Part shown: piece by piece, positions 33,099 through 64,000 of the stretch
How the letters are laid out: each line of letters begins with the position of its first letter
Numbering within the stretch: the first letter of the stretch is position 1
Assembly (NCBI GenBank): GCA_037447605.1
Contig: CM074815.1
Span: forward strand, 1,984,001 to 2,048,000
Reading direction: 5' to 3'
Source of the DNA: Zygnema circumcarinatum SAG 698-1b
Taxonomy: Eukaryota; Plantae; Zygnematophyceae
DNA length: 64,000 nucleotides
The notes under the pieces: model-generated
Seen by the model: only the letters and a program-made list of their open reading frames with translations
What the model was told of the DNA's origin: nothing
Database searches by the model: none
Position numbers and translations under genes: made by a program

Positions 33099-49195
<16,097 letters not shown>

Positions 49196-50017
49196 GGCTT
49201 TTCCCTCCGTCGTCCGCCCTCCGCTCTCTTCCTTCCTCCTCCCTCTGCCTCTTCCCTGCGCCCTCCCTCCACCCTCCACCCCTCCCCTCCACCCTCCACC
49301 CCTCCACCCTCCGCTCTTTTCCTCCCTCCTCCCTCTGCCTCCCTCCTGCGCCCTCCCTCCTCCCTCTTCCCTCCTTCCCCCCTCCTCCCTCCGCTCTCTT
49401 CCCTCTGCCCTTTATTTCTCCCTCCGCCCTCCACTCTCCTCCCACCACCCCTCCGCCCTCCTCCCTCCTCCCTCCGCTCCCCTCCCTCTCGCCCTCCCGC
49501 GCCGGCGAGCGCCCGCGAGCACCGAACCGCGTTGACATGGCAGAAAGTGACTTTGGTGCCTTGCGAAGTTCCGCGGCGCTGCCGTAAAACTGCCAAGGGC
49601 CAAAGTTCCAGCCGTACGAATTGTGTACGGTCGTTGACTGAGGGTCAATATTTCGTCCGTACGAACAATGTACAAATAGTCGTCACGTGACTGCCAGGTT
49701 CCTGCCACGTCACGCGGCTGCACAAGGCCGGGGCAGGAAAGTGCCCGTTAGTACATTTTTGTACATTGATCCTCGTAGTTTCCAGGATCCGTACTGTTCC
49801 GGGCGGCCCCGCGTTGGTGGGCGAGGACTGTGTTTTGTCGTGTTGCGCGTCACACCCGATTCCGGCCGAACGGCGGCGGGTTGCCGTCCAGAAGCCATGG
49901 CCGGGCCTGCGGGCGGCTCACGCACCCGCGGGGCCACGAACCTTCCTAAGAAGCAGCAAGGCCGTCCGTACGTCACGACGTGGCGACTATAGCTCCGTAT
50001 TATACACTTTGAGGTTC

Positions 50018-50156: not shown

Positions 50157-50469
50157 ACTTTGAGGTTCGATACAATATATAATACAGTATTAATACTGTA
50201 TAATACACTGTATAATACCTTAACGCAACTGTTTACAACCGTACAATCTGAACATAGATACGTACGGAAATTATGTACGGAAGGGGTGTACCAGCATGTA
50301 CGGACCCAGTCACACGTGTTGAGTGTTTGGCAAGTGACGTGACTTGGCAAGTGCTGGAATTTCAATATTATAATCAATCTTTGTTCAACTAAGCACGAAA
50401 ATAAAAAAAATACGTTAAATACATTAAAAATACACTGTATTTTTAAATGTTGTATAATACGCATGTATT

Positions 50470-51002
50470 ATGTGCTCGATTGGCAGCCTTGCAGCTCACC
50501 GTTAATTTGTCCAAGTGTTTTGCTTGGTCTCCGGTTGGTCTCCCCTCTTCCCTTTCGCTTTCGTCTGGTATACAGACTTGCTCGGACGCGCTTGGTATTC
50601 GCGTCCTTGTTTGCCCTTTTGGGGTTGCCTCGTATGTTGATCGTTTTGTGGATGATGCTTTGGCTGAAGATGTGTCTCAGGTTGATGAGTTGCCTCATCT
50701 TTCTGATCCCCAGGTGGCCTTTTCCCTGCTTACTCGTTGTTTTGCTTTACGTCCCTCCTATTTTTTACGAACCCCACCTCCTACCCTTGCTTTTCTTGCG
50801 TCCTTGCATACTTTTGATGAGCGCCTTTTCTCTGTGTGTCATCGTCTTTTGGGTCCGGGTATTTTTGACCGGCTGGAAGGTCCGCTTGCTCGTCTGTAGG
50901 CCTCACTTCCTATTTCTGCAGGTGGTTTGGGGCTTGTCCCCAGTGAGCGTGTTGCATCCCCTGCTTTTTTGGGTAGTTGGGCCCTTGTTGCTCCAGTTTT
51001 AG
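50470..51002 (+). mobile_element. Non-LTR retrotransposon fragment (RT C-terminal/thumb region, CRE-clade-like), degenerate
   Basis: LQLTVNLSKC...GIRVLVCPFG...DPQVAFSLLTRC...RPSYFLRT...RL*ASLPISAGGLGL...AFLGSW; truncated at 51002 by an LTR. Confidence 0.65.
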
Positions 51003-51636: not shown

Positions 51637-54600
51637 TCAAGTCCCCGTCCGAGTTGCGCGAAGACTGCCCAGGAACCCCCGTTCAGCCCTCGCCCGCGCT
51701 CCGGCGGCCCGCGCCTCCCAATACAAATCAAGGAGCTCCTGGCAATTGGTCAAGTTGCCTTCTTTCTCCCAAGTACTATGTTCAACCCCATAGCCCAACC
51801 ACTTCACGAGATACTCGTGATGGGATCTGCGACCCTTTCGCACTGTTCGGTGGGTTTGAATGGCTTCAACCTCATACTCAAGGTCGCCTTCAATCTCCAC
51901 TGGTGTAGGAGGTGGTTGGATCCTCCCGTCGTGTCGGTAAGCCTTTAGCAGACTCACATGAAAGACCGGATGCACTTTCATATGGGCTGGTAAATCCAAC
52001 CTGTAAGCCACTTCTCCAATGCGCTTCACGACTTTAAAAGGCCCCACATAACGTGGCCACAGCTTACGGGTGCCGCCATAAGCTTTGAGTTTAAGATGAG
52101 CGGTACTCAACAAAACTTCATNNNNNNNNNNTTCGGTGGACACCCATGTGCCACTCAGAAGGGGATTGATCCTTCGGCTGCAGGGGATTTAGAGGATGCT
52201 GACCAAAATTCAAAAAGAATGGAGTAGTACCGATAGATTCCTGGTACGCATTATTAATGGCATATTCAGCCACCGGGAGCAACTGATCCCACACATCCGG
52301 TGTAGGTCCCACATAATGCCGAAGATAATCTTCCAGGATTCGGTTCACCCGCTCCGTCTGGCCGTCAGTTTGCGGGTGGAAGGCTGTACTCATAGCCTGC
52401 TTGGTACCCACGATTCGTAGCACTTCTTTCCAGAAATGTCCAGTGAATCTGGGATCTCGATCAGAAATAATCTCTGATTGAAGCCCATGCAAACTCCATA
52501 CTTTGTCAACATAGATCCGTGCCATCTCATCGGCCCCAGCTGTCTTAGTAGTTGGTGCAAAATGCACCATCTTGCTGAGCCTATCGACGAACACTAAGAT
52601 GGAGTCAAAACCCCGTGGTGTGGCAGGAAGATCAGTGATCAAATCCATGCCAACACTCTCCCATTTCCGAAAAGGAGGTGTCAAGGGTTGCAGCTGGCCA
52701 GGAATCCTGCCAGTGCGTGCCTTATCACGTTGACAAGTGGGACAGGCGAGTACATACGCCTTCACATCCCTCGTGAGCCCCGGCCACCAGAACTCACGGA
52801 GCAGTGCCTCACGAGTCTTGGCAATTCCCATATGACCTCTGTACGGCGGATCATGCAACTCACTCAGAATGAGTTGCCGTACAACCCCGGTCTTGGGCAC
52901 GACCAATTGCGTCCCGTGATACCAAAACCCATCTGTTGAGAGCACCACTTTGTCCTTATAGCCACTACCCTGGCCATCCAAGAACAAGGGATCACCAGTA
53001 TAGCCCTCTTGAATCATCCGTCTGAGATCAGTGAGAGCAGGAGGGTCGACTGTCTGACTGGTGGGGTGGTTTATGGCTAGACATACCGGAAAGGGAAAAT
53101 CAGGGTTGGCCGGCCCTTCATCTCGACCGCTTTGTTCCTCCATCACCCGAGTCGACGAATGCACCATCCAGGCTAGATGTCGCGACTGCCTGCTCAATGG
53201 ATCCGCCACATTCAACCTCCCCGTCGACAGACCTAATCGATACCAAATCGTTGAAGGAACTCGACCAGCCAGGCTCAGCCAGTCAATGTCCGTTGAGAGG
53301 AGAGAATAACGTCGATGATCCAGGATAAGCGTGAATCATTTAAATAACACGCTTAAGGTTCTCATATGCGGATTACTGCAAGGAGCTCCTGCTCAGTTGC
53401 AGAATAATTGCGTTCGGCTGGGTTCATCTTACGACTTTCGTACGCAAGAGGTCGACCATCCTGAAACAGGACAGCTCCCAGAGCAAATCCGGACGCATCA
53501 CAAACCACCTCATATGGTTTGGTAGGGTCTGCCAACACCAATGTAGGTGCGGTGACTAAGGCATGTTTAACACCCTCAAAGGCCCGCTGGCATTCAGGCG
53601 TCCAAGTGTAAGTGACACCGGCACGTGTCAAATCTGTCAAGGGAGTAACAAGTTTGCTAAACCCTTGAATAAATTTACGAAAATAATTCGCAAATCCGAG
53701 GAAAGACCGCAACTGATGTAAATCAGCCGGTACTTCCCATGTCTCAACCGCAACCACCTTAGCCGGGTCCGGTCGAATGCCCTGATCATTCAGGATATGC
53801 CCAAGGTAAAGCAGCTCACGCTGCATGAAGTGACACTTCTTCCACTTGGCATAAAAATGATGCTTCCTCAGAACTTCAAACACCCTTCTCACGTGTTGAA
53901 GATGGTCCTCAACTGTCTTACTAAAGACGAGGATATCATCGAGGTACACCAAAACAAAGTCATCCATGCCAATGAACATTTCGTTCATGACGGCCTGGAA
54001 AGTTGCTGGAGCATTAGTCAATCCAAAAGGTAAAACTTTATACTGGAAGTGACCAATAGGCGTACGAAACGCCGTCTTAGGTACATCAGCATCCGTCACA
54101 CGAATCTGATGATAACCTTGTGCAAGATCGAGTGATGTGAATACTCGAGCACCTTGCAATCTGTCCAGCAAGTCATCAATACGCGGTAACGCATACCGAT
54201 TCTTGACAGTTATCTTGTTAAGTGCCCGATAGTCAATGCACATTCGCAAAGAACCATCTTTCTTCCCCACAAAGAGGATTGGAGCACCGAAAGGACTCTG
54301 GCTGGGTTCAATCCAACCTTTGTCTCTCAAGTTTGAGAGTTGCTTACGCATCTCTTCGGTCTCCTTGGGACTTAACCGATAAATCGGCCGCCACGGCGGC
54401 TTATGTCCAGGTTCCAAGGGAATAGTATGCCCGACACCTCGTGACGGAGGCAATCCCCGAGGTAAGTCATCAGGAAAAATATCCCTGAATTCATCCAACA
54501 ACGGTTGGATCCGAGATGGAACAGGTGACAACACATCCGTAGGTGTGACATGCCACTCTTGTTCCTCGTCATGAACATCTTCCGTGGTATCCATGACTTG

Positions 54601-57600
54601 TACCAAAAACAAGGTACATCCTGCCTTAACAGCTTTAGCCAACTGCATGGCTGAACACTGAAAAGGTGTATCAGACTGCTCAGCAGCATCTGGAATCGTA
54701 ATGCCTGGGCGCAGAGTTATTTGTCGTACGCCACAACGCAAAACACAAGTAGGTATGGAAAAATCCATCTGAGCCTTGACCATAGATAACCACTGACTTC
54801 CCAGAATAATATCTAGGCCAGGCGCCAGATTAGTGACCAAACACCGAATCTGCCCTGAGTAAGTCTGAATCTTCAGACGTGTGGTTATGGTTCCAAGGAT
54901 TTGACCCTGTCTACCATCACCAAAAGTCACGACTTCGGTGAGAGGGGAGACAGACAAGTCAACAAGCTTAACAAGTACAGCACTAATGAAATTAGAATCA
55001 GCACCTGAATCAAGTAAAACTACTACAGATCTGCCGCCAATGAATCCCTGAAAGGTCATTGCACGGTGTGCAAGGTGGAAGAGTGACCGCAATACATACG
55101 ATGATGGAGAACATGAAGTCCGCCAGATCAAAGGGTACGGCGATCCAACCAGCAAACTGGTAGAAGTATCCACCCAATGTAGCATGGGATGGCCTTTTCG
55201 CCACATCTTGACCAACTTCCAGTTAGTATGGCTAAAAGTCCCAATAGAAGCATGCAAAGGCATCAATACATGCAAACTTGAAACATGATTAGTGGTGCGC
55301 TGTAAACGTAAAGCAACAAATAGGCAATCAATAAGAGACACATTACCTGAAGGATTCAAAATCCAAACAGTCAATTGTTCTCCATGTTGGTGCAAGGGGC
55401 CAGAGGGCAGACTTCAAGGAAGGGATAAAGACATGCCCGGATGAAGCTCAAAACTTTCTTCATCTTCCACTTGGGCCACATACCGCTTCCTCCACGATCT
55501 GCCTTCCACCCACCCCTTGCCGGGTGCGCACAGCGGAAACTAAAAGCGCCACCTACAAGAACACTTCAACTCCTCCATGGTCTCGGCTCCTCAAGTCCAC
55601 GCTCCTCCAATGATCTCCTCGTGTGGAGCAACACACCGCCCATACAATGGTCGCCTCCACTCATCCACCACGCTTATCCAACACGAGGACTCACATGACA
55701 AATGATGCAGTAGTAAGGAGAAAGCCCACGGCCCCAAAACTCCTTAAACTTCATGAGTGTAATACAAGCTCTTCTAAGAAATCTACATAATCCCTTATGC
55801 TAGATTCTCCTCCTCACATGAGCGCTATCCTATCCTCTGATAGAAAGCCTACACCCCAACTGCAGTAGCCAAGCACTAACTGCCTCCATGAACTCCTCCT
55901 CTACCTCAACACAAGAGGGACACATCATCTAACTTCTTCACTAAAGCTTAGCATGATGAGAGCTAGTTCCTTCACGACCTTCATACACAAGGCCGGACTC
56001 CTCTAGGCCTCAGCCTCTGCCTACTCTTCCTAACACGAAGGTTGAGCAGTATAACATTCAGAGAGAGTGAGTCGAGCGAGTGAGTTTGCTCCCTTTTGAA
56101 CAACAATGGCGATGTGACGTGACACAAGTTGTCACGTCACGGCCGGCCCTTGCATCCGGCAAAGCGGCGCACCCAATTAGCGACCTACGATAGTGGTCCC
56201 GTAAACCTATAGTGGCACCGACCTACGCTTTGCCCAGCCGTACAGATTCACCAAGCGGCGGGTCCCCTTTTTGGTCCCTTCTCACTTTTCCGGCAGCCGA
56301 CCTTTCTTCCGTACGCTCAGACCCGCCGACCCACTACCGAGTGGTCCACGTGGCGTGGCGTGATTCGTCACTGACTTCCTGAAGCGCCTCCACTGACGCT
56401 TCACTCCGCCGCTTCGCGCACCGCCTCAAAAGTCTTCTAGTTGTGCCATGTGTCGCGCGCTCCGTACTCCGCACTCGCGCCGCGACCAATCAGCGCACTC
56501 CGTCATCTCACATATTCTCCACCGACATTGCCGAACCATGCGTCACGTCACGCATAGAGACGCGCCGCGATTCGCGTGCTGTCGCGACCAATCATGTCGC
56601 TTCACGCAAATCCGCCTCTCGCGCTTCCAAATCTCCGCGTCCGTCAACTTCCGCGTCGTCCGTACAATTCGCGCGCCGTCCGTACGGCCGCGCTCCAAAT
56701 CCGTCCAGGCGCACTCCGCGCGCCCCCTTTGGTTCGATCTAAGTCAAGGCCGCAAACCTATGACCCTAGACTATTCCTAGACCTGCCGTACCGTGCCCTA
56801 ACGATACGGGCACCACCCATGTTCGGTCCATTACCGAATCGCTCATGCATGACATTGTCCCTACACCAAAACATTGATGTCCCCGACAACATTCATGCTA
56901 GGAACTAAGTACCAACAACTTGATGTACCTCATACATCAACACTCCATTCATCACAACATTCATGAAAGAGTCAGGAGTCACGATTAAGGAAATCGAGAA
57001 TGGAATCACATTCAGATGCTCAGGACACAAAGTCACAAATACATCATGGTCATCCGGCTGTCTGCCCATCACTTTCAAAATGTCAAGAGGTTGTGGTACA
57101 AGCAAGCCTCTAGAACTGATAGCAGCAGCTGCAATCCTTAATCCATCTTCTCCACCCCGCAGCGACTCCTACACTGCTGGTGGTGTGCCGTTTTCCGGCC
57201 CTTTTCCCTTCTTGTCCTTGATGCTTTGCGGACAGTCCTTCGCCATATGGCCAGACTGCCGGCATCGGAAACATCGTCCTTCCTTCTTCATCTTCTCCAA
57301 TTCCTGTGGAGTAAGCTTTTGCACCTTTGCAGAAGGCTGTGGGGCAGAGGTGGCACTCGGCTTTCTCTTTTGCGGATTCGCCTCCTTAAGCTTTGGAAAT
57401 AAAGGGAAGAGCTTCCGGTCTGCCTCTGGAGGTGGTGGACGTGAAGGCCCGGCGCTGCCGCCAGGAAAGGAATCAGCTTGCAAAGCCGCCGCATAGNNNN
57501 NNNNNNAATTCCTTCTTCAAATGCGGCTTCAGGCCCATCCAGAAGTGATAAAACACTGCTTCATCAGTAGGACGATGTGTCTTAATGAGTGACACCGTCA

Positions 57601-57910
57601 TACGCAGATCTCGCAAGAACTTCTTGGCACTACCAGTTTGTACCATATTGTGGTACCTTTGACGCGCTTCCATTCCAGGATCCAAAACCCCAAAATGACG
57701 CTCAAGTTCCTTGCGGAATTTCTCCCAATCACTCCCAATCTTAGTGGCTAAGCTCTCGTATACACGATAGGCATCGCCGCGAAGTGATGGATAGGAAAAA
57801 TTCACCCACTCCTTCTGTGGGCAATTCGTGGCGTGAAGGTAACCCTTCACTTGGCCCAACCACTGTTCAATAGAACAGTCGGTTGCAGGGTGTTCTCCCC
57901 AAGGAGAAAT
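51637..57910 (-). mobile_element. Ty3/gypsy chromovirus internal region: gag (CCHC knuckle), unknown domain, protease, RT, RNase H, integrase, chromodomain; interrupted by a solo LTR, N gaps and frameshifts near RNase H
   Basis: CFRCRQSGHMAKDC; LLDSGA; YLDDIL; CDASG; HxxxxxxH...CxxC plus D,D35E integrase; GPF motif; EYEVEAI...YLVKWLGY...STWE chromodomain. Confidence 0.95.
55385..56942 (-). mobile_element. Solo LTR (1558 bp), related to the Copia LTRs at 61373 and 63126, inserted in the gypsy pol frame
   Basis: TGTTG...CAACA ends; TSD CTCCA at 55380-55384 and 56943-56947; shares CTTAGTTCCTAG, AAGGAGTTTT...GCTTTCTCCT and CCCTCTG(G)CCCCT blocks with the Copia LTR. Confidence 0.85.
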
Positions 57911-57920
57911 NNNNNNNNNN

Positions 57921-60900
57921 TGTGCAGACTGGGGGTTGTTCTACGAGATGAGATCGCTCCAGGCCCCTCGTTCAGTTCAGTCAGCGACTGGTGAGGAAGT
58001 GAAGGTGACCAGCGGAGGCGACGTGAGGATCGTCTTAGGAGGAGAGAGTGAAGGGGCAGCTACCATGATTGGTAACGTGCTTTATACCCCTGGGTTGCAG
58101 CACAACTTTGTGTCTGTGGGACAAGTGTGCGACAGGGGTTACTCAGTCACCTTTGATAAGCAGAATTGCGTGGCTAGACATAAGAAAACTGGGAATGTCT
58201 TATTTCAGGGGCACCGGAGAGAGGGCCTGTACGTCTTACAGTGGAGTAAGCCTGAAGAAGAAGGAGAGTCAGTTTTGCTTATGACCCAAGATGAGGTGCA
58301 GAAGTGGCATAGGAGGCTTGGGCATGTGAGTTTTCGAGCCATGCGAGAGTTAGCTCAGAAGGGGTTGGTCCGAGGCTTGGACTTGGAGGGTGCGGTTGAT
58401 CCACAGAGGATTTGCGAAGACTGCATTAAAGGGAAGATCCATCGTGGGCCATTCGTGCGAAGAGGAGATGGAGAGGGGCGCGCCAAGGAGCCGTTGGCGC
58501 TTGTGCACACAGACTTGTGTGGCCCCATCACCCCAGCGAGCTTGGGAGGAAGTCGATATTTCATCACTTTCCTTGATGACTACTCACGAAAGATTTGGGT
58601 GGTGCTCTTGACACAGAAGTCTGACGCTTATCCAGCCTTCAGAGCTTGGAAGATGCGTGCAGAGCGGGAGAGCGGCCATCTACTCAAGAACCTCCGTTCA
58701 GACAATGGAGGAGAATTCAAGAACAAGGTGTTCAGTGAGTATTTGAGAGGCTTGGGAATCAAGCAGGAGTTCTCTGCTCCATACTCACCGCAGAGTAATG
58801 GAGCTGCAGAGAGAGTGAACAGGACTCTTGGAGACATGGCAAGGACGATGTTGCATGACTCACCATTTCCTGTGACATTTTGGGGAGAAGCAGTGATGAC
58901 TGCCGCTTATGTGAGGAACTGGTGTCCGTCATCGGTCTTGGAGGATCGAGTGCCTGATGAGGTGTGGAGTGGGACGAAGCCCACTGTGGGACACTTGAAA
59001 GCATTTGGATCAAAGTGTTGGTATGCGATACCGAATGTCGCGCGTGGAGGGAAGTTTTTCCCAAGGGGCAAGGAGGGCTTCTTTCTTGGATACGCCAGTG
59101 ATTGCAGGGCTTACAGGGTGTATAGCCTTGAGACCAAGAAGGTAAAGATCAGCAGGGACGTGAGGGTGGATGAGGATGCTGCACACGTCCCCTTTACCCA
59201 CTCATGGAGGCGTGCTGATGAGTCGTGTCCACTCGGATTCACCTATGAAGGTGAAGTGATTGTGAGTCACCCTGAGCAGGAGAAGGTGCCAGTGGCCACT
59301 CAAGCTCAGACGGAGGAGAGTGCCACGCCCATTCATTCACGACGGCCTGTAGAGTCAGAGAGTGAAGATGAGACGAAACCGGTGACCTTTACTCCCTTGG
59401 GTTCTCCACATTGGGGAGACATGCAGGAGTCTGTGGGACCATCGGTGGAGGCATCAGCTGCGAAGTCTCAAGAGGAGACCTCCAGTTCACGAGAGGAGAC
59501 AGCCAGCATGCCGCATAAGTTGGTGGCTTCAGAACCACGTGCAGCGGCGAATGGAGAGTTGCTGGAGGAGATGGCTGATGAGCCAGAGGAGGAAGTGTCA
59601 GCTCCAATGCGAGCTGTGGAGCAGCCTGAAGAGCATCCCTCTGTGATGGAGAAGACAAGTGGGAGGACCAGGCGGCCTCCAAATCGTTTCAGTCCGGCTG
59701 TGCCTACGAAGCGCATGCGGAAGAAAGCACGAAAGAATGCCCAGGATCATTCTGCATCATTCTCAGGTGACATGGACATGATTGCCCATTGTTACATGGC
59801 CCATGCTGTTGAGCCTCAGACTTACGGGGAAGCTGTTGAGGGGCCAGATCAGATCAAGTGGCAGCAGGCCACCCAGGAGTGAAGGCATCCTCACTGAGAT
59901 TCAGCTGGTGCTTGAGAAGCTCCTACCCCTGGAGGTGTGCCATCGGCTGCAGCTGGGTCTTCAAGGTTAAGAGGAAGGCGGACGGCAGCATTGATAGGTA
60001 CAAGGCGCGACTCGTGGCCAAGGGCTACAGTCAGAAGGAAGGAGTTGACTACACAGAGACCTTCGCTCCTGTGGTGAAGTTCAACTCCCTCCGCTCCCTC
60101 ATTTCTATTGCCAGCCGCAGAGGGGATGCATGTCCACCAGTTGGACATCAAGACTGCTTTCTTGTATGGAGATCTTGATGAAGAGATATACATGGAGCAG
60201 CCAGAGGGATTGCTAGAGGAAGGAGAACCTCGCGTGGCTAGTACTTGCTGAAGAGCTCTGTATGGCTGTGAAGCAGGCCCCCCGTGTGGATGAGAGGATC
60301 GATGAACCCCTACAGATACTATGATTGACTCGTTTTGAGACTGATACTTGTGTGTACTCAGTTGGCGAAGATGATGATAAGTTGTTTGTTGGGGTCTATG
60401 TGGATGACCTGATCATGATCAGCAAGTCTCTTCGCAGCATTGCAGAGTTGAAGGAGCTCTTGCAGGAGAATTTCCAGATGACTGACCTTGGAGAGGCCCA
60501 ATATCTCTTGGGGATCCAGCTGAAGAGGGGGCCAGATGGTTCGCTATTCCTTTGTCAAAGGAAGTATGCAGAAGATGTGTTGCGGAAGTTCAACATGTGG
60601 GAGTGCAGGCCATGCACAAGTCCCATGGAGGCTGGAGTTCGCTTCACGAAGGAGATGTCCCCGTCTACAGAGGAGGAGGTAAAGGCAATGGCAGGAGTGC
60701 CATATCGATCTGCTGATTTGCAAGCCTCATGTACTTTGATGAGAGCACCAGGCCTGACCTTATGAGCCGTTAGCACGGCAACAGACATTCATGAAGAACC
60801 CTGGAACAGCATCTGGGAAGGAGCTCATATTTTGGTTTCTGAAGGGGAACTGTGGATTATGGCCTCAGGTTTGAGAGGGGGACTCGCAGCCGAGTCTATG

Positions 60901-62273
60901 GCTATACAGACGCTGACTGGGGAGGGGATTTGGATTCATCCCGCTCCACATCTGGATACGTTTTCTTGAATGCAGGTGGGGCCATCACATGGAATTCCAC
61001 CTTGCAGTCTTCAGTGGCCCCTCCAGCAGGCCCAGAGTACATGGGGGCCTCATGGGACCGAGAGAGTGTGTGTGGGCTGCCTGTTCTTTGGGGAGCTGCG
61101 AGCTGCCCTCACCTCCCTTACTACCTTCACCAGCAATCAGCCCTCTCATTGCTCTAATGGGGAATCCGGTGTTCCACAAGCGGAGCAAGCATTTCCGGAT
61201 CCAGACCATTACGTGAGACAGAGGTGAGAGAGGGGCCGCCAGATCAGCTTCATCGTAACCGAGGAGGCACTGGAGACTGACCCCGAAGGGCAGCCAGTGT
61301 GAGACCTTGAGGATTAATTCGGATCTCATTGGGCTGGGGCCTCTCAGGAACTAAAGTGCCAAAGAGGGGGAATGTTAGTGTACATAGTTAGTTCAGATTA
61401 GCATGTTTGTGTTGGCGCTTAGTTCCTAGGGGTGTGCTTCTAGGTGTGACATGTATGGGGCTGTATTATTCAGCGTGCGCGCCCGCAGGCTTGGACGCGG
61501 CAATGGTACGGAATAGTATGGACTGCTGTACGTATGTACGGACACATGTGCAGTCCTACATTTGGTACTGTGCTTGAGGAATCGGTCCTGGAGTACGGAA
61601 TCGAGGAATGACGCGGCGCGGAAGGCGGCGGAGTCGGTGGAGTCGGCGGAGCCTACTTTGCGTACGGAGGATAGTCCTTATGAAGGACGGCGGGGTGTTC
61701 AGCCCGGCGGTAGAGTACATGGCCATCTGGGTCAGAACGCGTGGTGTTGGTACGTTGCCAGGCACGCATAACTATGCATAGCAAGACACGAAGTAGTTAC
61801 ATCTAGGTTGTTTGAATAAGGTTGTTGCATGTATGGTTTGCGTGTGTGACGCTGATAGGTCACGCCACAGCCCCATACTATATAGTGAGAGTGGGTGTGT
61901 AAGTTATAAACCTTCTTGATATGCATTGCAAGGCTATGGCAGATTGAAGGCATGGCTTTGGCAACAGGAGGTGGACCTTTGTGAGGAGTCTCCGTGTGTG
62001 GAGAGCTGCCTCACGTGAAGGTGAAGTGATCATGTGGTGAAAGCTTGATTAGGCTTATGGGGGCTTGAGTTGGAAAGCTTGTCATCATAAAGGAGTTTTA
62101 GGCTGGGAGCTTTCTCCTACGTTTTTCTATTCCGCCTCTCGTGTGTTGTGTATGCACGTGAGTGAAAAATGAGTGAGAGTGCTGCGGGCACCAGGAGGGA
62201 AGTTTCCATGGACAGTGAAGAGGGAGAAAGGGTGGAAGGTGAATTTGCTTCTCATCCCTCTGCCCCTCTCACA
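57921..62273 (+). mobile_element. Ty1/copia element, 5' truncated by a gap: GAG-pre-integrase, integrase, indel-rich RT/RNase H, PPT, LTR 61373-62273
   Basis: WHRRLGH...CEDC, VHTDLCGP, LRSDNGGEF, NGAAERVN, YKARLVAKGYSQ, YVDDL, YTDADWGG; AAGAGGGGGAA PPT then TGTTAG. Confidence 0.93.
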
Positions 62274-64000
62274 GATGGTTCGCTATTCCTTTGTCAAAGG
62301 AAGTATGCAGAAGATGTGTTGCGGAAGTTCAACATGTGGGAGTGCAGGCCATGCACAAGTCCCATGGAGGCTGGAGTTCGCTTCACGAAGGAGATGTCCC
62401 CGTCTACAGAGGAGGAGGCAAAGGCAATGGCAGGAGTGCCATATCGATCTGCGATTGGGAGCCTCATGTATTTGATGACAGGCACGAGGCCTGACCTTGC
62501 GAAAGCCGTGAGCACGGCAAGCAGATTCATGGAGAACCCCGGCGAGGAGCATTGGGAAGGAGTCAAGCGTATATTTCGGTTTCTGAAGGGAACCGTGGAT
62601 TATGGCCTCAGGTTTGAGAGGGGGACTCGCAGCCGAGTCTATGGCTATACAGACGCTGACTGGGGAGGGGATTTGGATTCATCCCGCTCCACATCTGGAT
62701 ACGTTTTCTTGAATGCAGGTGGGGCCATCACATGGAATTCCACCTTGCAGTCTTCAGTGGCTCTCTCCAGCACTGAAGCAGAGTATATGGCAGCTTGCCA
62801 TGCAGCCAGAGAGTGTGTGTGGCTGCGGAACTTCTTTGGGGAGTGTGAGCGGCCTCAGCTCCCCTTACCACTCTTCACGGACAATCAGTCCTCTATTGCT
62901 CTAATGGGGAATCCGGTGTTCCACAAGCGGAGCAAGCATTTCCGGATCCAATACCATTACGTGAGACAGGAGGTGAGAGAGGGACTTGTCAGTATCAAGT
63001 TCATTGGAACCAGGGAGCAGGCAGCCGATATGCTGACGAAGGCAGTCAGTGGTGAGACCTTGAGGATTAATTCGGATCTCATTGGGCTGGGGCCTCTCAG
63101 GAACTAAAGTGCCAAAGAGGGGGAATGTTAGTGTACATAGTTAGTTCAGATTAGCATGTTTGTGTTGGCGCTTAGTTCCTAGGGGTGTGCTTCTAGGTGT
63201 GACATGTATGGGGACGGACTTACTTCAGCGTGCGCGCGGCGGCGAGACCGACCGCGCAACCGTACGGATAGTATGGACCGTACGGACCGTACGGTCGGTA
63301 CGGACAGTACGGCCGGGAGTCCGACATTTGGTACCGCGCCGAGGAATCGGTCCTGGAGTACGGAATCGAGGAATGATGCGGCGGCGGAAGACGGCGGAGT
63401 CGGTGGAGGCGGCGGAGCGTACTTTGCGTACGGAGGATAGTCCTTATGAAGGACGGCGGGGTGTTCAGCCCGGCGGTAGAGTACATGGCCATCTGGGTTA
63501 GGGCGGTGGTGTTGGTACGTTGCCAGGCTGGGTGTACTATGCATAGCAAGACACGAAGTAGTTTATTTAGGTTGTTTGAATAAGGTTGTTGCACGCTGAC
63601 GTGACATGGTCACGTCACAGCCCCATACTATATAGTGAGAGTGGGTGTGTAAGTTAAAAAAACCTTCTTGATATGCATTGCAAGGCTATGGCAGTTTGAA
63701 GGCATGGCTTTGGCAACAGGAGGTGGACCTTTGTGAGGAGTCTCCGTGTGTGGAGAGCTGCCTCACGTGAAGGTGAAGTGATCATGTGGTGAAAGCTTGA
63801 CTAGGCTTATGGGGGCTTGAGTTGGAAAGCTTGTCATCATAAAGGAGTTTTAGGCTGGGAGCTTTCTCCTACGTTTTTCTATTCCGCCTCTCGTGTGTTG
63901 TGTATGCACGTGAGTGAAAAATGAGTGAGAGTGCTGCGGGCACCAGGAGGGAAGTTTCCATGGACAGTGAAGAGGGAGAAAGGGTGGAAGGTGAATTTGC
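62274..64000 (+). mobile_element. Second, intact-frame Ty1/copia RT/RNase H 3' part (stop at 63107) with PPT and LTR from 63126 past the window end
   Basis: YRSAIGSLMYLMTGTRPDLA, SSTEAEY, KRSKHF, QAADMLTK; near-identical to 60535-62240. Confidence 0.93.

Follow-up and report, generated by a model that had tools for sequence, protein, structure and literature searches.

The window analysed here is a 64,000-nucleotide stretch of Zygnema circumcarinatum SAG 698-1b (assembly GCA_037447605.1, contig CM074815.1, positions 1,984,001 to 2,048,000). It carries on its minus strand, at 57940-51637, a decayed Ty3/gypsy chromovirus in which Gag with a zinc knuckle, protease (PR), reverse transcriptase (RT), RNase H (RH), integrase (IN), an SH3 domain and a chromodomain are recognised by Pfam. 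An earlier note, made from the letters alone, had claimed a hidden coding domain between Gag and protease that resembles a degenerate N6-adenine DNA methyltransferase. The pre-protease segment is indeed coding, and it is uninterrupted in sibling copies of the element. The reading that we favour, on balance, is that it forms the N-terminal part of pol in a high-copy chromovirus family, and that it is a degenerate descendant of a phage-type Dam (PF05869), derived from chlorophyte DAM-chromoviruses and likely non-methylating.

In the window copy the domain is split by an insert of 1,558 nt (55385-56942), which resembles a solo long terminal repeat (LTR): it starts with TGTTG, ends with CAACA and is flanked by the target-site duplication CTCCA (plus strand; left copy at 55380-55384, right copy at 56943-56947). 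The linker and first half of the domain lie at 56943-57153 on the minus strand and the second half, with the linker to the protease, at 55060-55379. As the note had proposed, removal of the insert and one CTCCA joins the halves without a stop. Indeed, only one minus-strand frame of 57168-56943 is stop-free (75 codons plus one base; the other frames hold 11 and 6 stops), and 55379-55060 reads through without a stop in the phase that fits it (two bases plus 106 codons, against 4 and 5 stops in its other frames). From base composition, the probability of both halves being open by chance is 0.016 x 0.0065, or about 1e-4. The peptide motifs quoted in the note are all present. The junction 55379->56943 is bridged directly by contigs in all four DNA runs, which represent three studies and include one run possibly from the window's own source; because the depth there is that of the element's interior (e.g. 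1109.6 in X6 and 486.6 in X2), most family copies must lack the insert. The insert itself has a longest stop-free run of 127 codons and, in most bins, a summed read depth far above that of its flanks; it belongs to a repeat more abundant than the element, with no second copy within the window. It was rejected as the element's own LTR, having no match at the element's 3' side; that LTR was not identified, and the 5' end of the element is lost at a copia element and an N gap.

The coding nature of the segment is best seen through a homologue, P0002 (358 amino acids (aa), from an unrelated sample, with protease and chromodomain), one of two proteins returned when the second half was used as a HMMER query against 1.84 billion representatives. 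Residues 72-175 of P0002 match the second half (31% over 104 aa, E 9e-13) and residues 22-70 match the first half, which was not used as a query (39% over 49 aa, E 5e-6); the two matches are colinear and abut at residues 70/71, the exact site of the insert. Likeness to P0002 begins at about 57111 and hence the conserved domain spans about 150 aa, so that of the proposed ~190-aa domain the open interval is real, but its length from 57168 to 55060 is 182 codons and its conserved part is shorter still. In P0002 the domain and protease lead straight into the integrase tail and chromodomain, and RT, RNase H and the integrase core are missing; P0002 is an internally deleted derivative that retained the pre-protease domain. 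The second HMMER match, P0001, was discounted as an artefact of repeats (MBG repeats, a 25-aa stretch). Longer proteins, searched through a word index with the second half and with the domain of P0002, gave no match, which is weak evidence, and the ESM Atlas gave no usable one. Long sibling contigs that cover the final 190 nt of the open interval are about 16% diverged with no gaps (X2 record 9, 123 differences over 760 nt; X6 record 24, 128 over 830). Amongst the 40 of 398 sibling differences that were listed, ten codons of the domain and linker differ, six synonymously and four with a change of amino acid, and none becomes a stop; the synonymous excess on these ten codons has p 0.029 against an assumed synonymous share of 0.27. 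A non-coding spacer was therefore rejected on the P0002 homology, the uninterrupted siblings and the absence of stops from the codon differences. The domain is part of the pol reading frame in an LTR element, as in the DAM-LTR retrotransposons.

The link to Dam runs through intermediates. A search with the end of the domain, the linker and the protease gave three full pol proteins (P0003-P0005), and a metagenome scan gave L002, the one locus of 17 with a pre-protease region. The RT of the window element is 65% identical to that of P0003. L002:52-5004, P0003 and P0005 are chromoviruses with Dam-like pre-protease domains in which motif IV is altered (IHCP, NAPI and LGVP). Together these three domains align to ten phage Dams (hhalign 96%, E 3e-9) and score z 12.9 against a profile of 45 prokaryotic Dams. 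The 16 phage matches of the P0003 domain at E<=1 all belong to one Dam gene family, 13 being annotated as methyltransferases; its top Pfam row is Dam, at only E 0.046. Amongst PDB sequences the P0003 domain matched only an alpha-glucosidase, at E>0.2, viral-contig scans (with the P0003 domain, alignment A3 and pol) found no relatives, and the N-terminus of P0004 was not placed (114/1000 shuffles; z 0.8-2.4). Eighty near-identical Dams that were retrieved were kept out of the profiles, and the three frameshifted Dam loci L118-L120 were included in the hidden Markov models (HMMs) used for scoring and excluded from the profile-profile test. A set of bacterial open reading frames (ORFs) of 330-500 aa (L134, L136-L139, L145-L148) also carries a C-terminal Dam domain, some of them in several copies per genome; of 20 compared with the LTR-DAM profile, L147 scored highest (E 3e-6).

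From these intermediates to the window family the statistics are modest. Against a three-sequence LTR-DAM HMM, P0002 scores 7.7 bits (reached by 1/1000 shuffles) and the window domain 2.3 bits (17/1000), and the family aligned to the LTR-DAM group profile to profile gives z 2.5 (1/150 shuffles, 0/81 real decoys). When segments were cut solely by their distance from the protease, z was 2.2-3.0 for a global alignment of window and P0003 and 2.9-3.9 for P0002 and P0003, with 2/205 real decoys equally good; a motif-anchored alignment of P0002 and P0003 is nearly gap-free (z 4.1). The spacing from motif IV, its position chosen by eye, to the protease aspartate is 118 residues in the window element, 119 in P0002 and 117 in P0003, as compared with 114 in P0004, 102 in P0005 and 140 in L002. 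All of these tests rest on the same few sequences. Several results weigh against the Dam reading. hhalign of the family with LTR-borne DAM/Dam profiles gives only E 0.26 and 0.51; the window domain compared directly with the 45 prokaryotic Dams gives no signal (150/1000 and 51/150 shuffles); neither half nor the P0002 domain matches Pfam or PHROGs, and none of them matches Pfam Dam at E 1e-5, the threshold of the only paper found on DAM-LTRs, a 2026 preprint (bioRxiv 10.64898/2026.05.21.726589). The first half is not significantly alignable to the Dam-like group (z 0.9-1.3), and the N-terminal Dam motifs W-x-T-P and L-D-x-A are not recognisable in the window family. Fold searches speak neither way: the models are of low confidence and match nothing significantly in the PDB or BFVD, and the structures ranked highest are IF3-C, SirA, Smr, Alba or GNAT. 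The Dam ancestry put forward by the note thus fails every direct test against Pfam, PHROGs and prokaryotic Dam profiles and stands through the two-step chain via P0003, on which we consider descent from Dam quite probable.

A Dam-derived relic could also persist as a mere read-through linker, stop-free as pol is translated through it and with its fold jobless. The domain does diverge faster than its neighbours (31-36% identity to P0002, as against 45% for the protease and 71% for the chromodomain region), motif IV is different in every relative seen and fold confidence is low; against this, length is near-constant in three elements (117-119 residues to the protease aspartate), hydrophobic strand positions are retained and synonymous changes are in excess, though on ten codons only, so that we regard a jobless linker as unlikely. 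Alternatively, the domain might be genuinely coding and yet of non-Dam origin, for instance an IF3-C/Alba/Smr-like fold that binds nucleic acids and has only its strand-helix-strand pattern and position in common with Dam; this would account for the lack of a direct significant Dam profile match and for the top structural rows. In favour of Dam, the family-only model, at low confidence, places a strand at 71-76 ending at the Asn, a helix at 83-97 and a strand at 102-108, and 21 of the 46 Foldseek matches listed are, by their names, S-adenosylmethionine (SAM) methyltransferases, with T4 Dam at ranks 5, 8 and 24 and all matches at E>0.4. Such an unrelated domain would have to occupy the same position, with the same spacing, as the Dam-like domain of P0003, a relative with 65% RT identity, and to align to it nearly without gaps (the anchored and distance-cut P0002-P0003 scores above); as independent capture at an identical site and length is less parsimonious, we think this improbable.

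Within a Dam-derived domain the state of motif IV bears on activity. NPP[YFS] is present in 43 of the 45 prokaryotic Dams and absent in the window family, which has NPSG at that position (NPPY/F in Dam; 55345-55356, minus strand) both in the window and in the main sibling contig, and NAQG in P0002. The main X6 contig has four differences in 55218-55379, all outside the NPSG codons, and because the motif is unchanged there NPSG is the state of the family and not decay of the window copy, which upholds the degenerate motif IV described by the note. In a diverged sibling, a 30-letter loose end read by eye gives W-I-F-N-P, and the next codon starts with AT and is not proline. With NPSG, NAQG, NAPI, IHCP and LGVP, motif IV is altered in all relatives seen, which suggests that its erosion is common in the group of L002, P0003 and P0005. 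In amino-methyltransferases the second proline and the aromatic residue of motif IV hold the flipped adenine; as both are lacking, adenine methylation is unlikely, and the domain is probably catalytically inactive. An active methyltransferase with a changed motif IV, whose substrate in the course of reverse transcription would be DNA, RNA-DNA hybrid or RNA, is very unlikely. In its favour, the Asn and first Pro are retained in the window family and the diverged sibling, the family is high-copy and the preprint ties DAM-LTRs to N6-methyladenine (6mA); against it, motif IV lacks its second Pro and its aromatic residue, P0002 retains the Asn only, the SAM-binding half is unrecognisable, intact eukaryotic DAMs are described as inactive in E. 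coli (bioRxiv 10.64898/2026.05.21.726589) and the related domains of DIRS elements are considered likely inactive in the account of Iyer et al. (PMC4738411). The anti-silencing role suggested in the note is unsupported, the evidence speaking neither for nor against it.

Gag is represented by a capsid-region ORF (57473-57940, minus strand; Retrotrans_gag E 6e-7), with N gaps at its bounds and its 5' end replaced by the copia element, and by a C-terminus with the zinc knuckle (57169-57516, minus strand; zf-CCHC E 7e-7) that ends in TAG at 57171-57169. The in-frame continuation from Gag into the domain reported in the note is copy-specific: the main sibling contig is one base shorter at 57155 in 4/4 runs, so that the Gag-TAG-domain link, including the first five codons past the Gag stop, is in frame in the window copy only, and in siblings both domain and pol are in -1 relative to Gag. 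Read-through of TAG into the domain was rejected since siblings differ in frame. In the window copy the -1 frame is open over 57385-57113 and, by arithmetic, leads into the domain frame once base 57155 is removed; the pol proteins P0003-P0005 are likewise called without Gag domains. We infer from the sequence a -1 frameshift from Gag into the domain and pol, with internal initiation or splicing as alternatives. A scan of 57516-57169 in the Gag frame found two heptamers, one of them the candidate slippery site G GGA AAA (57208-57202), whose downstream hairpin is weakly supported (z -1.74; 12/200 shuffles equally stable). On the Dam-descent reading, ribosomes would reach the domain by slipping into the -1 frame close to G GGA AAA, where Gag ends, yielding Gag-(Dam-like)-PR-RT-RH-IN-chromodomain; the protease would then free the Dam-like domain inside the particle, where the kept C-terminal half-fold (strand-helix-strand past motif IV) may serve as a non-catalytic nucleic-acid-binding or spacing module.

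Downstream of the domain, on the minus strand, are the protease, RT and start of RNase H (53362-55059; RVP_2, RVT_1 at E 4e-40, RT_RNaseH_2), with a premature stop at the end, an integrase (52118-53335; H2C2, rve) in a separate frame in the window copy, and an integrase tail with SH3_Tf2-1 and chromodomain (51637-52188; Chromo E 1e-16). This gives the order of a Ty3/gypsy chromovirus, with gag followed by PR-RT-RH-IN and a C-terminal chromodomain. The window copy is dead, carrying the solo LTR, the extra base at 57155 and the stop in RNase H. A Ty1/copia element (57921-64000, plus strand; Pol_BBD, GAG-pre-integrase, rve, SH3) abuts its 5' end at the N gap and contains a 1.75-kb segment twice (60533-62248 and 62272-64000, 90% identity). 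Short ORFs past the chromodomain (50343-51002, plus strand) look by eye like a C-terminal fragment of a non-LTR RT, with no Pfam match.

Elsewhere in the window, host genes with introns occupy 7685-30514 (a dihydropyrimidinase-like amidohydrolase, plastid ribosomal S1, TFIIS and an amino-acid transporter). The S1 exon scores 126.9 bits to the spinach chloroplast S1 chain 5x8p vs 103.1 for the next plastid-type chain. A plant-type leucine-rich repeat (LRR) receptor-like gene (47606-49411, minus strand) has an LRRNT_2 cap, 144-nt internal repeats and a match to FLS2 at E 1e-118; the best chlorophyte example is described as sharing only 21% similarity with the plant counterpart, even if motifs of plant type are found there (PMC12757656). 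Together with the classical chromodomain (PMC3350952), the S1 exon and the receptor-like gene point, probably but short of proof, to a streptophyte alga or a non-seed plant as the host. The receptor-like gene adjoins a simple-repeat tract of GA/GGGA, 3 kb long (44.5-47.4 kb), and tandem segmental repeats lie in 37300-44400 (e.g. at 2,141-nt spacing, with near-identical ORFs at 41499 and 43640), without a Pfam match.

The class of domain architecture described here is already published, and the finding extends that class and is not a new system; what is new is a high-copy, degenerate form below detection in a probable streptophyte alga. The preprint describes DAM-LTRs including a chlorophyte DAM-chromovirus clade, with a conserved NPP triplet and no activity in E. 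coli, and reports them absent from Streptophyta in a hmmsearch screen at E 1e-5; it argues, citing this absence, that DAM-LTRs exploit host 6mA, and its main text contains neither 'protease' nor 'frameshift' (0 occurrences each) (bioRxiv 10.64898/2026.05.21.726589). Such a screen would miss the window domain because the domain lies below Pfam Dam detection, and screens at Pfam thresholds thereby miss the degenerate tail of DAM domains. A literature search that took in few subscription papers found no report of LTR elements with a Dam-like domain in streptophytes. Tentatively, Dam-derived domains may persist in the chromoviruses of streptophyte algae as conserved pseudo-enzymes that escape Pfam screens, the catalytic motif having eroded after host loss of AMT1/6mA and the fold being selected for some task in the particle that needs no methylation (binding of nucleic acid, or regulation of protease activation). 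If true, this would overturn the reported absence of DAM-LTRs in Streptophyta and separate the core function of the domain from 6mA; a high-copy family that has kept the domain but not the catalytic motif, in a probable streptophyte, would be a natural experiment on whether the domain depends on catalysis or on host 6mA at all.

Amongst known systems, the window element shares with the chlorophyte DAM-chromoviruses, as the preprint describes them, its Ty3/gypsy type, chromodomain, likely Dam-derived domain in pol and green-lineage host, and differs in a domain under Pfam detection, the lack of the NPP triplet and a probably streptophyte host (bioRxiv 10.64898/2026.05.21.726589). The N6-adenine methyltransferase-like domains of DIRS elements, which on the account of Iyer et al. 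are likely inactive and possibly bind element transcripts (PMC4738411), are likewise Dam-type domains of a retroelement polyprotein, whereas the window element is, compared by description, an integrase-type LTR element (PMC4738411; PMC5890265). Cytosine methyltransferases have been described in charophyte gypsy elements (PMC5890265). With phage and prophage Dam (PF05869) the domain shares, via the P0003 group, the order strand-NP, helix, hydrophobic strand and G-x-hydrophobic strand, whilst it lacks NPPY and a direct significant match. Finally, the Chlamyvir/Tcn1 group I chromodomain chromoviruses, compared by domain order from their published description, resemble the window element in PR-RT-RH-IN-chromodomain and in a classical-looking chromodomain (PMC3350952), and the window element differs from them in its extra pre-protease domain.
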